A DNA stretch of 64,000 nucleotides from Arenicellales bacterium (GCA_963422685.1 OY730442.1:2317839-2381838), one strand, 5' to 3'. Positions 52,526 to 64,000 are shown, numbered from the stretch's first letter. The notes: generated by a model from the letters alone, not told the origin. Translations and numbers: made by a program.

Positions 52526-55500
52526 GTTTCAATCCACGCGCCCCTGAAGGGCGCGACGGCGAAGTTCGGCAATCAGACTGTGCGGGTACCCGTTTCAATC
52601 CACGCGCCCCTGAAGGGCGCGACGCATCATATCAATGACGCGAGAGCCCTTGGTATTGTTTCAATCCACGCGCCCCTGAAGGGCGCGACCTCCAGTAATT
52701 CTACTGTTTCCGAGCTTGAGCGTGTTTCAATCCACGTGCCCCTGAAGGGCGCGACTGTTTCTGGACAAGCGCTGAAGCGATTTATGGCTATGTTTCAATC
52801 CACGCGCCCCTGAAGGGCGCGACCAAAGAAACCAAGTTCCAAATGGCCTTGTTTGAAGTTTCAATCCACGCGCCCCTGAAGGGCGCGACTTAATCGCAGG
52901 ATAGATCCGTACACAGTACTGGGTTTCAATCCACGCGCCCCTGAAGGGCGCGACATCGCAACGACCGCCGCCGGCGCATCAGCAGACATCGTTTCAATCC
53001 ACGCGCCCCTGAAGGGCGCGACAAAAATAAACCTTTCAAGAATTCTACAAGAACAGGTTTCAATCCACGCGCCCCTGAAGGGCGCGACGGCTGGCTGTAG
53101 CAAACATTAATATAGCCACCAGTGTTTCAATCCACGCGCCCCTGAAGGGCGCGACGGCTCAACGATGAAGTTAAAATCTCCTTGAATCTGTTTCAATCCA
53201 CGCGCCCCTGAAGGGCGCGACTCAACGCAACAGTCGCGAGATCTCGTAATTTGTCTGTTTCAATCCACGCGCCCCTGAAGGGCGCGACGCGTATTTTTGG
53301 ATCAGTCCAGCCGTATCGATTTCGTTTCAATCCACGCGCCCCTGAAGGGCGCGACGTTCGAAAAGGCACCGGTTGCGTTGAGCACACGAGTTTCAATCCA
53401 CGCGCCCCTGAAGGGCGCGACCGAGATTGAGGCCGACTTACTACGGCAGCAAGAGCGGTTTCAATCCACGCGCCCCTGAAGGGCGCGACTGCATCATATC
53501 GATGACGCGGGAGCCCTTGACATTGTTTCAATCCACGCGCCCCTGAAGGGCGCGACCAATTATGCTGTCAAGCCAATTACGCCTGGATGTGTTTCAATCC
53601 ACGCGCCCCTGAAGGGCGCGACCTACACAGCAACGCCGGCTACCTACCCATCCGTAGTTTCAATCCACGCGCCCCTGAAGGGCGCGACTTCCCGAGCAGC
53701 GGGTCAATGCTCACGACCCGAGTGTTTCAATCCACGCGCCCCTGAAGGGCGCGACAGCTTGTTGCATCAGCAGACAATCGATTGTCAATGTTTCAATCCA
53801 CGCGCCCCTGAAGGGCGCGACTTTTTTTTAGCTAGTTTAGGAATCACTGGATACCGTTTCAATCCACGCGCCCCTGAAGGGCGCGACTGCCAGATAATGT
53901 ACCATTCATTGCCACACTGCTAGTTTCAATCCACGCGCCCCTGAAGGGCGCGACGATATACCGCTCGCCCTGTCTGCCGTTTTGGTCGATGTTTCAATCC
54001 ACGCGCCCCTGAAGGGCGCGACGACAATCAATCAGTTATATGATTAAATACGTCCAGGTTTCAATCCACGCGCCCCTGAAGGGCGCGACTTCTCAAGGCG
54101 GCACTGACGCCGCGAATCTTGGTGTTTCAATCCACGCGCCCCTGAAGGGCGCGACGGCTGTGATGTTAGCCTTTGCGCAATCCATCGCCGTTTCAATCCA
54201 CGCGCCCCTGAAGGGCGCGACTTGGTGTTTTGGCCAGTCGTCTTCCTGCAAACTGGTTTCAATCCACGCGCCCCTGAAGGGCGCGACCAAATTATCCGTA
54301 CTTTGACTCAAGAGGTCCGGTGTTTCAATCCACGCGCCCCTGAAGGGCGCGACATCCGATTCTGTCGGGCAATATCATGAGTAGTCTGGTTTCAATCCAC
54401 GCGCCCCTGAAGGGCGCGACAAGCAGTACAACGACAAGCAAGCTCGGCGAAAGTGTTTCAATCCACGCGCCCCTGAAGGGCGCGACTGGCCAAGCGGACC
54501 AAGCCGATTGGTGAAAGTGCGTTTCAATCCACGCGCCCCTGAAGGGCGCGACCTGTCTGGACGGTCTGCTTCTTCAACCGCATCCTCGTTTCAATCCACG
54601 CGCCCCTGAAGGGCGCGACCGCCATTTTTTTAACTCTTGTTGCGTCTATAGTTAGTTTCAATCCACGCGCCCCTGAAGGGCGCGACGGCCACAGTGCCGC
54701 AGTGATTACCCTCCTCATCGCGTTTCAATCCACGCGCCCCTGAAGGGCGCGACGGACTGGTATCAATACAATCGACTTGACCCCATGGGTTTCAATCCAC
54801 GCGCCCCTGAAGGGCGCGACTTGGGCGACGATAGCAGTCCATTGACGTAATATTGGTTTCAATCCACGCGCCCCTGAAGGGCGCGACGAGCCCCAATTAA
54901 TGCTCCAACCGACATCAGGATGTTTCAATCCACGCGCCCCTGAAGGGCGCGACCAACCATCAACCAATTCGTCAAATCAACCAACGAGTTTCAATCCACG
55001 CGCCCCTGAAGGGCGCGACCAACCATCAACCAATTCGTCAAATCAACCAACGAGTTTCAATCCACGCGCCCCTGAAGGGCGCGACTTAAATCAACCAGGG
55101 GGCGCTTGACTAAAGAGCAGTTTCAATCCACGCGCCCCTGAAGGGCGCGACATGCGCATATGTCGATCAGACGTATCGATATGATGTTTCAATCCACGCG
55201 CCCCTGAAGGGCGCGACAACCTGCGCGTCACATCAGACGCGCAGGCAAAAAGTTTCAATCCACGCGCCCCTGAAGGGCGCGACAGGTATACCCTCAAATC
55301 TTGCTTTTAGATCAGCGGTTTCAATCCACGCGCCCCTGAAGGGCGCGACATCTATGACACTGTCGATGAGAGCATCGACTACGAGTTTCAATCCACGCGC
55401 CCCTGAAGGGCGCGACTACAGAAGGACAGAAGATACAGATACTTGGTCGTGTTTCAATCCACGCGCCCCTGAAGGGCGCGACCTCTTTTAATATTACAAA

Positions 55501-61500: not shown

Positions 61501-64000
61501 CGGACGAGCCCAGTAATCATGTTTCAATCCACGCGCCCCTGAAGGGCGCGACAAATGTACAAAACTAACTACGTGGATAACGCACACGTTTCAATCCACG
61601 CGCCCCTGAAGGGCGCGACGACAGATGCCCGACTGAAATGACATACACAAAAATTGTTTCAATCCACGCGCCCCTGAAGGGCGCGACTGACATACACAAA
61701 AATCAAAGTAATCGAATTGGAGTTTCAATCCACGCGCCCCTGAAGGGCGCGACAACCGTAAAAAAGGGCGATATCGAAGCTTTCAGCGGTTTCAATCCAC
61801 GCGCCCCTGAAGGGCGCGACCCATCTTGAGTTTGCAATTTCGCAAACTCGCAATTGTTTCAATCCACGCGCCCCTGAAGGGCGCGACACCATAAAAAAGG
61901 GAGATATTGAAGCTTTCAGCGGTTTCAATCCACGCGCCCCTGAAGGGCGCGACGCCGCGTGCTAATTGCACAGCGGCAGTAATGACGGTTTCAATCCACG
62001 CGCCCCTGAAGGGCGCGACTTTCATCGTCCTGACAAAAAGCTTCGCTTCAGTACGTTTCAATCCACGCGCCCCTGAAGGGCGCGACCGATAAAATGTGAC
62101 GATGGAAGACGTATAAACATCGTTTCAATCCACGCGCCCCTGAAGGGCGCGACCATTTTTAAATCCTCGTTTAGTTGCGAGCTTGCGGTTTCAATCCACG
62201 CGCCCCTGAAGGGCGCGACACTGAAATCACGTACACCAAAATCAAAGTAATTGGTTTCAATCCACGCGCCCCTGAAGGGCGCGACTATGGTATTTTGTTT
62301 GGCCAGGGCGATGAGGTTTGTTTCAATCCACGCGCCCCTGAAGGGCGCGACGCAGAAAAAACAAATGGCGCTGAGCGAGTCTTAATGTTTCAATCCACGC
62401 GCCCCTGAAGGGCGCGACTATCCCCGTCTTACGCATCACCACCAAACTCACTGTTTCAATCCACGCGCCCCTGAAGGGCGCGACGCCCCGAACGTGTGCT
62501 GCGCGCCGGACTGGTCGGCGTTTCAATCCACGCGCCCCTGAAGGGCGCGACAAAATCAAACTCAGCGCCAGCATCCCTTAGATACTGTTTCAATCCACGC
62601 GCCCCTGAAGGGCGCGACAACCACCAGGTCATCACTGTTGACCCGGGCCGCATGTTTCAATCCACGCGCCCCTGAAGGGCGCGACTGATGTACCCATCGT
62701 GACCCGTAGCACAGCCAGTGTTTCAATCCACGCGCCCCTGAAGGGCGCGACGTTCGAAGTTAGCGGCATCGCCCAGCAGTAGGTCGTTGTTTCAATCCAC
62801 GCGCCCCTGAAGGGCGCGACACGCAGCGAGACAGTCACGCCTCGCTGCGACAGGGGTTTCAATCCACGCGCCCCTGAAGGGCGCGACATACCCCTAAACC
62901 TAAACCAGCACCTCAATACCAAGTTTCAATCCACGCGCCCCTGAAGGGCGCGACCTGAAGGAGCCGCTTACCCGCTGTCCCTGCATATCGTTTCAATCCA
63001 CGCGCCCCTGAAGGGCGCGACTATGGTATTTTGTTTGGCCAGGGCGATGAGGTTTGTTTCAATCCACGCGCCCCTGAAGGGCGCGACGACGAATTGGTTG
63101 ATGGTTGCGGTGACGAGTTTTGTTTCAATCCACGCGCCCCTGAAGGGCGCGACAACTTTTAGCGACCTGTGCGGTGCTGGTGGTCTTGTTTCAATCCACG
63201 CGCCCCTGAAGGGCGCGACGGCGTTGCAGGCTCTCTTCCAGCAAAGTACACTGGTTTCAATCCACGCGCCCCTGAAGGGCGCGACGGGTATAGCGCGTAT
63301 AGCGGAAGTTTGTGGCGAGGTTTCAATCCACGCGCCCCTGAAGGGCGCGACGTGCGGCCTTGCCGAGAATTTGATAGCTGGTATGTTTCAATCCACGCGC
63401 CCCTGAAGGGCGCGACTCCATAAGAATGTTTCAATCCACGCGCCGGAGCGCGTTTCAATCCACGCGCCCCTGAAGGGCGCGACCACCCTCACCGGACCCA
63501 ACACCATCGCCCCAAACCGTTTCAATCCACGCGCCCCTGAAGGGCGCGACCTCGGGAGAAGGAGAGGATGTGCGGAATATGGCTGTTTCAATCCACGCGC
63601 CCCTGAAGGGCGCGACACGGCGACGAACATCAGCCCGCCGGAATTATGACGTTTCAATCCACGCGCCCCTGAAGGGCGCGACGGCGCGCAGCACACGTTC
63701 ACCGCCCGCGACCTAGCGGTTTCAATCCACGCGCCCCTGAAGGGCGCGACGACGTGCAGACAGTAATTGTCGACGGCGCCGACGCGTTTCAATCCACGCG
63801 CCCCTGAAGGGCGCGACATCTATGGCGAGGATTTATTCAACACCGTAATCAAGTTTCAATCCACGCGCCCCTGAAGGGCGCGACAGCCTCAAACTTCCCG
63901 GATGTAGGCCGAAAAATGCGTTTCAATCCACGCGCCCCTGAAGGGCGCGACGACGTGCAGACAGTAATTGTCGACGGCGCCGACGCGTTTCAATCCACGC
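52526..64000 (-). CRISPR. Large type I-C-like CRISPR array, about 172 spacers in the window, truncated at the right edge
   Basis: 32-bp repeat GTTTCAATCCACGCGCCCCTGAAGGGCGCGAC (reverse complement GTCGCGCCCTTCAGGGGCGCGTGGATTGAAAC, with a 7-bp hairpin and an ATTGAAAC end); spacers mostly 33-37 bp; one variant repeat at 52724-52755. Transcription is inferred on the minus strand, with the leader and cas genes beyond 64000. Confidence 0.98.

Follow-up and report, generated by a model that had tools for sequence, protein, structure and literature searches.

Hairpin spacers in a very large type I-C CRISPR array and the structured mobile element they probably record

Why does a bacterial CRISPR array hold many spacers that fold into perfect hairpins? 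The question is raised by a type I-C array of an Arenicellales bacterium, which occupies positions 52526-64000 on the minus strand of a 64,000-nucleotide stretch of its genome (GCA_963422685.1 OY730442.1:2317839-2381838; this whole stretch is referred to as the window). An initial annotation of the window attributed the hairpins to an episode of acquisition focused on one structured non-coding region of a filamentous or other single-stranded DNA (ssDNA) element. Here we discuss evidence that two CRISPR systems of the same cell have sampled a common invader, and that the architecture of this prey, together with its repeated re-sampling, probably explains the hairpin excess.

Hairpin excess and its distribution

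A hairpin spacer is defined here as one whose perfect stem has 7 bp or more and whose loop has 3-12 nt. By this measure, 16 of the 171 spacers in the window are hairpins, in line with the proposed figure of at least 15 spacers with 7-12 bp stems; 14 of the 171 have stems of 8 bp or more, up to the 12 bp of spacer S90. The expected number of hairpin spacers is 1.35 in mononucleotide shuffles and 1.7-2.0 in dinucleotide shuffles (maximum 6 in 300). Moreover, the mean minimum free energy (MFE) of the spacers is -5.93 compared with -4.98 +/- 0.11 in dinucleotide shuffles, that is, 8-9 standard deviations lower. In the host chromosome, 34-nt windows adjacent to TTC contain 1.06% hairpins with stems of at least 7 bp and 0.27% with at least 8 bp. 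The corresponding values for 48 other type I-C arrays, fetched by Cas1 and comprising 1,943 unique spacers, are 1.8% and 0.62%, compared with 8% and 7% here. Given these low rates in shuffles, host DNA, and other I-C arrays, the excess is therefore specific to this genome and not a general I-C property. The claim of a strong excess thus stands far above both composition-matched shuffles and real-DNA controls.

The distribution of the hairpins along the array is a different matter. The ten spacers first singled out as examples all form stem-loops, and one of them, S91 (58550-58584), has a perfect stem of 6 bp only. About 11 hairpins had been placed within some 22 consecutive spacers; 9 of the 16 lie in S78-S99 (57682-59118), and 11 is reached when S91 and the half-hairpin S89 are included. 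The raw counts show significant clustering at 57.7-59.1 kb (scan P = 1e-4), but counting each locus only once, which leaves 11 loci, removes the significance (P = 0.47). The cluster consists of repeated captures from the three hairpin loci referred to below as A, B, and C.

A shared invader and its hairpins

When all I-C spacers were compared with the masked genome by BLAST, many matches of 16-30 nt appeared at 2.554-2.566 Mb. This region is a second array, of type I-F (L002 3622-16196; genome 2553621-2566196), with the repeat GTTCACTGCCGCACAGGCAGCTTAGAAA, 210 repeats, and 209 spacers; it ends in a degenerate repeat and adjoins csy2-csy3-cas6f, with an AT-rich leader. Spacers of the I-C and I-F arrays are denoted S and F, respectively. 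The I-F array also carries an excess of hairpin spacers (21 vs 2.5 expected from shuffles), and 28 pairs of I-C and I-F spacers overlap, involving at least 17 I-C spacer families. Perfect overlaps of 20-30 nt include S78/F36 (26 nt identical), S84/F28 (30 nt identical), S96/F19, S100/F69, S25/F150, and S57/F149, while S41 and F172 agree at 25 of 26 positions; many pairs of coding-site spacers overlap likewise. Flanks read from these overlaps have TTC before the I-C protospacers and CC before the I-F protospacers as protospacer adjacent motifs (PAMs). The overlaps and the proper PAMs in both arrays therefore indicate that both systems sampled one invader, which carries the hairpins. The hairpins are probably a property of the prey and not of the array. 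These results also bear out the suggestion of a focused acquisition episode, insofar as acquisition was repeated and from one element.

A source in the host itself has to be considered, as a gene for a RAYT and hairpins of the repetitive extragenic palindromic (REP) type are present in the same window. Outside the two arrays, the 2.9-Mb genome holds no match longer than 18 nt to a hairpin spacer; the REP beside the RAYT gene is unrelated in sequence, and the hairpin of locus A occurs in none of 61 relative genomes. Host REP/RAYT palindromes were rejected on these grounds as the identity of the hairpins, and the dispersed host REP or terminator sequences that might have undone the initial annotation were not seen in the masked genome. 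As to rearrangement within the array, duplicated spacers are mostly non-adjacent and not block duplications. There is hardly any chance that a host source or an array artefact accounts for the hairpins.

The anatomy of the hairpins was rebuilt from overlapping spacers; those of the I-C array are on the minus strand of the window. At least five loci with differing flanks (A-E) and six singletons were recognised. Locus A has the consensus T7-GCC[C/T]GCGCGTC-TGATG[C/T]-GACGCGC[G/A]GGC-TGAAC and the reconstructed flank T7..GGCTGAAC. It was captured as S41 (55218-55251; T-A variant with the loop TGATGT, 10-bp stem, MFE -20.9; overlaps F172) and as S78 (57682-57717; C-G variant T7-GCCCGCGCGTC-TGATGC-GACGCGCGGGC, 11-bp stem, MFE -25.8, TTC PAM; overlaps F36). 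A variant A', with a longer stem and a T·G closing pair, is represented by S84 (58084-58118; overlaps F28), and S91, with the loop TGATT, extends the right flank (GGCTGAACGCGACCTT). The T-run before the hairpin in S78 and the A-run after it in S41 belong to this single locus, captured from opposite strands. The reversed order relative to an intrinsic terminator, as originally described, was found: the T-run of locus A lies 5′ of the stem, and the locus is a terminator on neither strand.

Locus B reads TCTATCC-T-[TCCAGC..loop..GCTGGA]-GGTGTGCAATGAATGCG, with the reconstructed flank TCTATCC..GGTGTGCAATG. Its variant 1 is S83 (58017-58051), TCCAGCGCT-CGTGCA-AGCGCTGGA and then GGTGTGCAAT. A Shine-Dalgarno sequence, GGAGG, shares bases with the 3′ arm and stands 6 nt ahead of an ATG (GGAGG-N6-ATG). 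S85 (58151-58184) is the S83 protospacer minus 1 nt and represents a non-adjacent re-acquisition. S89 (58417-58451) covers the right half of locus B and GGAGGTGTACAATGAATGCGTCG, with the loop inverted (TGACCG-type TGCACG) relative to S83, and provides both the ATG and the TTC PAM of S83. Locus C (TTAGTTA-TGCGTCGTC-GACAT-GACGACGC[A/G]) was captured as S82 (57951-57984; 9-bp stem, T-A closing pair, loop GACAT), S93 (58684-58718; T·G closing pair), and S95 (58818-58851), in which the loop is inverted (ATGTC vs GACAT) between unchanged flanks. Locus D, represented by S90 (58484-58517; TTC PAM), has its perfect stem within an open reading frame (ORF; ..TSAIVAASATIAE). Chains of overlap lead from S90 to the I-F spacers F34 and F186, as well as to seven F variants of R-A-x-A-x-[ED]-I-V-L-T, which fix the frame by synonymous variation, with differences mostly at third codon positions (R-A-x-A-x-[E/D]-I-V-L-T-T-S-A-I-V..). 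Locus E is S99 (59085-59118; 9-bp stem GCTCGCGAG/CTCGCGAGC), which has k-mers in common with F35 and S92.

The remaining hairpins are S43 (55350-55384; 7-bp stem), S140 (61821-61855; 8 bp), and S155 (62821-62855; 9 bp with a 10-nt loop), all three singletons, together with S115 (60155-60188), in which a T5 run precedes a 7-bp hairpin, S121 (60556-60590), an 8-bp hairpin that chains to F70 and F85, and S45 (55483-55517), an AT-rich hairpin with an 8-bp stem that overlaps S70 (57150-57184). S45 and S70 share TAATATTAC, which is the nonanucleotide found at rolling-circle origins of the geminivirus type and here lies partly in the AT-rich stem; this occurrence is probably due to chance, the prior being about 8% for any given 9-mer in the spacer set.

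The suggestion that the hairpins tile one structured non-coding region did not survive this reconstruction. The loci have different flanks, B abuts a Shine-Dalgarno sequence and an ATG, D is coding, and the I-F spacers F103, F163, and F166 are ordinary terminators (hairpin and T8). Intrinsic terminators were rejected as the identity of the I-C hairpins, as the stem of locus A is preceded by T7 and followed by TGAAC, and loci B, C, D, and E lack a T-run. The invader hairpins resemble REP-type mRNA-stabilising hairpins, intrinsic terminators, and the intergenic hairpins of Ff phages in having GC-rich, perfect or near-perfect stems at gene ends or starts that drift with compensatory change. They differ from terminators in that locus A has no 3′ T-run, locus B lies on a ribosome-binding site, and locus D is coding; unlike REPs, the copies are orthologous, with shared flanks, and not dispersed.

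The compensatory stem changes claimed in the initial annotation were recovered in the comparison of S41 with S78, and conservation of pairing extends to locus B. Here, all nine pairs are 100% paired in five variants, three of them having changed on both sides, and one position shows three pair types (A-T, C-G, and T-A). The covariation score of 0.378, compared with 0.104 in shuffles, was reached by 0 of 500 shuffles, and sliding the 3′ partners abolishes pairing. The closing pair of locus A is T-A in S41 and F172, T·G in F43 and F45 and in the A' form of S84/F28, and C-G in S78 and F36; that of locus C is T-A in S82 and T·G in S93 and S95. At both loci the G·T wobbles are confined to one strand, the one with the T-run upstream, which suggests that the fold acts single-stranded, as mRNA or ssDNA. 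Perfect pairing could be maintained by selection or by template-switch "correction".

True loop inversions between unchanged flanks are seen in S95 relative to S82/S93 and in S89 relative to S83; an apparent "flip" between F39 and F40 in the I-F array is merely opposite-strand capture. Small loop inversions ("flip/flop") occur in chloroplast DNA stem-loops and at parvovirus termini. As in those cases, the loop is swapped for its exact reverse complement with arms and flanks unchanged, while here the loops are internal, of 5-6 nt, on short stems, and in a prokaryotic mobile element. For the mechanism, we infer template switching or arm recombination.

Array chronology and the bias of acquisition

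The chronology is read with the polarities of both arrays fixed. The I-C array has 172 repeats and 171 spacers in the window and 201 repeats and 200 spacers in the genome, as determined by tandem-repeat and pattern searches, and extends 1.9 kb past the window, up to its leader and cas operon. Directly past the window come a leader of 180 bp and, on the minus strand, the complete operon cas3-cas5c-cas8c-cas7-cas4-cas1-cas2, from whose position it follows that the minus strand of the array is transcribed. The part in the window is the trailer side with the older 171 spacers; the oldest spacer is at 52558 and the newest is S200. The repeat, GTTTCAATCCACGCGCCCCTGAAGGGCGCGAC, reads GTCGCGCCCTTCAGGGGCGCGTGGATTGAAAC in the sense of the CRISPR RNA (crRNA), and its reverse complement is a canonical type I-C repeat (GTCGCGCCC..GTGGATTGAAAC). 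It is 32 nt long and ends in ..GGATTGAAAC, as expected of type I-C, and the spacers are 33-39 nt long with a mode of 34. Rfam gave a weak, below-threshold match to CRISPR-DR9 on the minus strand. Cas1c (484 bits), Csd1 (506), Csd2 (389), Cas5c (210), Cas4, and Cas2 score above the curated NCBIfam cut-offs, and Cas3 was recognised through domain models alone. The 5′-TTC PAM could be rebuilt from overlapping spacers in the three cases that were checkable, S78, S83, and S90. The host genome is a single 2.9-Mb contig with a G+C content of 52%, and its nearest named genomes are metagenome-assembled genomes of the sponge-associated "Candidatus Spongiihabitans". No genome of the family has an identical I-C repeat, and no spacers are in common with the other I-C arrays compared. 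Taken as a locus, this is an ordinary type I-C array of very large size.

Two further features of the host DNA were noted. Five copies of a short repeat in the host agree with the exceptionally long spacer S54 (56083-56121; 39 nt) at 32-34 of 35 nt; they differ from it in the four PAM-proximal bases, their flank reads ATT instead of TTC, and self-targeting is presumably avoided. At 1215-1484, a 133-bp unit occurs twice, with many GGCC..GGCC palindromes of the host REP type.

Both arrays record the same succession of locus A variants, from T-A/TGATGT (S41, F172) through C-G/TGATGC (S78, F36) to A' (S84, F28), and the I-F array places the T·G state between the T-A and C-G states. The later T-A-type spacer S91 shows that lineages co-circulated. 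Coding sites were re-sampled with synonymous differences, TVKKGDIEAFS four times and MYKTNYVDNAH three times. In addition, seven I-F spacers (F90, F92, F109, F115, F169, F189, and F191; L002 8992-15088) derive from one PAM site and represent seven coding variants of R-[AS]-x-A-x-[ED]-I-V-L-[TI]. This site is hypervariable, resembles a signal-peptidase A-x-A motif, and runs on into the S90 hairpin. Repetition without change was also observed: S147, S158, and S189 (62286-62319 and 63022-63055 in the window; L001 1088-1121) are one non-hairpin spacer in three non-adjacent copies, and S154/S197 and S169/S172 are further repeated spacers.

These data show that a closely related, fast-diverging family of mobile elements, absent from all collections searched, has invaded the host lineage repeatedly. 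The invader carries many GC-rich perfect palindromes, with stems of 8-12 bp and loops of 4-7 nt, at gene boundaries and in at least one case within a gene. Conserved PAMs lie at the foot of the stems, TTC for I-C (..CTTC|AGC..) and CC for I-F (..GCC|, ..TCC|), and both systems therefore excise protospacers with the whole stem-loop. With pairing as the sole constraint, the stem sequence would drift fast as G·T intermediates and compensatory changes arise and loops invert, and the drifted variants would escape the existing spacer. A partial spacer match might then prime a new acquisition at the unchanged PAM site. The sites that evolve fastest, that is, pairing-constrained stems and the hypervariable residue stretch, would be recorded most often. 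Escape and primed re-acquisition would therefore make the arrays pile up versions of a few hairpins, as in the 57.7-59.1 kb cluster of the I-C array and in F21-F51 of the I-F array.

Type I CRISPR arrays are time-ordered records of co-evolving viruses, and primed or interference-driven re-acquisition is established for I-C in Legionella and for I-F in Pectobacterium and Pseudomonas. The present arrays share with these the leader-proximal chronology, old partial matches beside newer versions with the same PAM, the strand bias, and synonymous coding changes. Here, however, the most re-sampled sites are perfect stem-loops, two CRISPR types record the same succession of hairpin variants, and priming is putative.

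Several points weigh against this explanation of the excess. After collapsing, 11 hairpin loci are left among about 190 distinct protospacers, which implies an unusually hairpin-dense region or some bias to hairpins. The apparent hairpin density, gene order, and genome type of the element are pieced together solely from overlapping 32-36 nt pieces, and the putative priming step is read from sequence. Moreover, identical I-F hairpin spacers were re-acquired non-adjacently in 4 of 16 cases, compared with 4 of 183 for other spacers (odds ratio 15, P = 0.0016). This is hot-spot behaviour, beyond variant "updating" alone, for which reason models of structure-directed acquisition or of "poor guides" stay in consideration.

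A structure-directed model would hold that hairpin or cruciform DNA, or fold-back ssDNA, is a preferred prespacer source in this host and that both type I systems have true acquisition hot spots at hairpin sites. The fold-back ssDNA would arise from rolling-circle replication, conjugative entry, or stalled transcription. The precedent is the Streptococcus thermophilus type III-A Cas1-Cas2, which preferentially samples transient DNA hairpins (sso, oriT, and attenuators) as a property of the machinery, independent of PAM and orientation (PMC8860593); it is the only such precedent for hairpin-biased adaptation (PMC8860593). The spacers discussed here are likewise enriched in partially palindromic DNA of functional sites in mobile elements, and a structural preference would be consistent with the excess in both arrays of the host, with the identical re-acquisitions just mentioned, and with the roughly 3-10 fold enrichment that collapsed hairpin loci still show. 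Unlike in S. thermophilus, however, the PAM rules hold: the reconstructed protospacers all keep them, and the offset of the stem within the spacer varies. The bias is also absent from the 48 other I-C arrays (1.8%). The hairpin re-acquisitions stem from two loci only, A and B, and non-hairpin sites were re-sampled equally heavily, for example the R-A-x-A-x-E-I-V-L-T site seven times. A host-specific adaptation factor may favour hairpins; as a whole, we regard structure-directed acquisition as unlikely.

In a related and improbable scenario, the palindromes would be an anti-CRISPR adaptation of the element, in the form of PAM-flanked "decoy" protospacers that are readily captured but give self-paired guides (about 20 of 34 nt) with poor interference, or the host type I Cas1-Cas2 would prefer fold-back DNA. 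Were the decoy reading true, the cell would keep priming and re-acquiring, even identically, without clearing the element. The initial annotation had also raised the possibility that hairpin spacers misfold the crRNA. Folds of repeat-spacer-repeat units were limited to a 40-nt pairing span, as long-range repeat-to-repeat pairing dominated without this limit. The folds do not predict impaired processing: both repeat stems form in 62.5% of the predicted structures with hairpin spacers compared with 60.9% with other spacers, and hairpin spacers are predicted to pair less with the repeats than other spacers do. The hairpin guides themselves are about 60% self-paired.

The invading element and what the record means

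The prey to which we attribute the hairpins can be described in part. Its reconstructed pieces contain small ORFs, mainly on one strand, and terminators are also present. Among the I-C spacers from families with a provable frame (56751-62253), 15 of 16 are sense on the plus strand of the window; most I-F spacers of the same element are also sense, and the PAM-bearing strands are therefore opposite between the two systems. One ORF has an A-x-A motif followed by a hydrophobic stretch. Re-sampling statistics suggest that the effective target space over all targets is small, in very rough terms a few kb (I-F) or tens of kb (I-C), and a small plasmid-like or phage-like element fits these data. Among the I-F spacers, motifs related to replication are of two kinds only, clustered 9-mers that resemble DnaA boxes (CTGTGGATGGATGTGGATAACCCTGTGCATAA; TGTGGATAA / TGTGCATAA / TGTGGATGG) and a 16-nt repeat in tandem (TGTGAGCGTCCCAAGC twice), in F110 (L002 10192-10223), F181 (14457-14488), F41 (6051-6082), and F179 (14336-14368). 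Judged by their sequence, the DnaA-box cluster and the iteron-like repeat hint at theta-type rather than rolling-circle replication.

These features bear on the view that the prey has an ssDNA genome, filamentous or otherwise, and that its hairpins serve as signals for the origin or for packaging within a single structured non-coding region. The one-strand wobbles at loci A and C would suit a single-stranded function, although mRNA structure accounts for them equally well. The single polarity of 15 of the 16 I-C coding-family spacers, as if all genes were on one strand, the small target space suggested by heavy re-sampling, and the small ORF with its A-x-A motif, hydrophobic stretch, and hypervariable site, which is loosely coat-protein-like, would also be compatible with such prey. 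The hairpins, however, occupy at least five loci with differing flanks, one before a Shine-Dalgarno sequence and ATG, one coding, and some of them plain terminators, and the DnaA boxes and iteron-like direct repeat point to theta replication. Furthermore, no inovirus, microvirus, or other homologue of the reconstructed peptides or DNA was found in the collections searched. An ssDNA prey with its hairpins in one such region is unlikely.

The searches for the element covered several kinds of sequence. In viral_contigs, metagenome_contigs, and genome_contigs, DNA patterns, exact or degenerate, for locus A, two coding families, and the repeat mimic described below gave no match; 8-kb pieces of the arrays gave only repeat-to-repeat matches against phages and plasmids (blastn), and a 104-nt spacer contig gave none against 101 relatives (blastn). 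Chimeric peptides from spacer contigs had no homologue in related-locus, protein (three length classes; 5.8 billion proteins), and tblastn searches. Two candidates were rejected: the IMG/VR contig L078, where KKGDIEAF is a chance match of eight residues and to which no other spacer maps, and a match with two mismatches to hairpin A in a sister genome, which is ordinary coding DNA.

Four I-C spacers, S124 (60755-60788), S164 (63417-63451), S68 (57016-57050), and S195 (L001 1649-1684), contain GCGC-TCCG-GCGC-GTGGATTGAAAC, a shortened mimic of the I-C repeat that includes the 3′ handle. It follows that the invader has a repeat-like unit standing alone, which is a candidate for an RNA anti-CRISPR or a mini-array.

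On the reading that prey architecture and re-sampling shaped the two arrays, the independent CRISPR systems of one cell provide a dated and replicated natural record of the evolution of structured DNA or RNA elements in an uncultured mobile element, with compensatory stem changes by way of G·T intermediates and with inverted loops. The record points to a hairpin-dense element of sponge-associated bacteria that carries a mimic of its host's repeat and has no detectable relative in current databases. It also shows that the way in which the prey sequence is built and the speed of its evolution can strongly bias the spacers that accumulate in an array. If hairpin protospacers were indeed poor guides or acquisition hot spots, this would bear on guide design and on the evasion of adaptive immunity.

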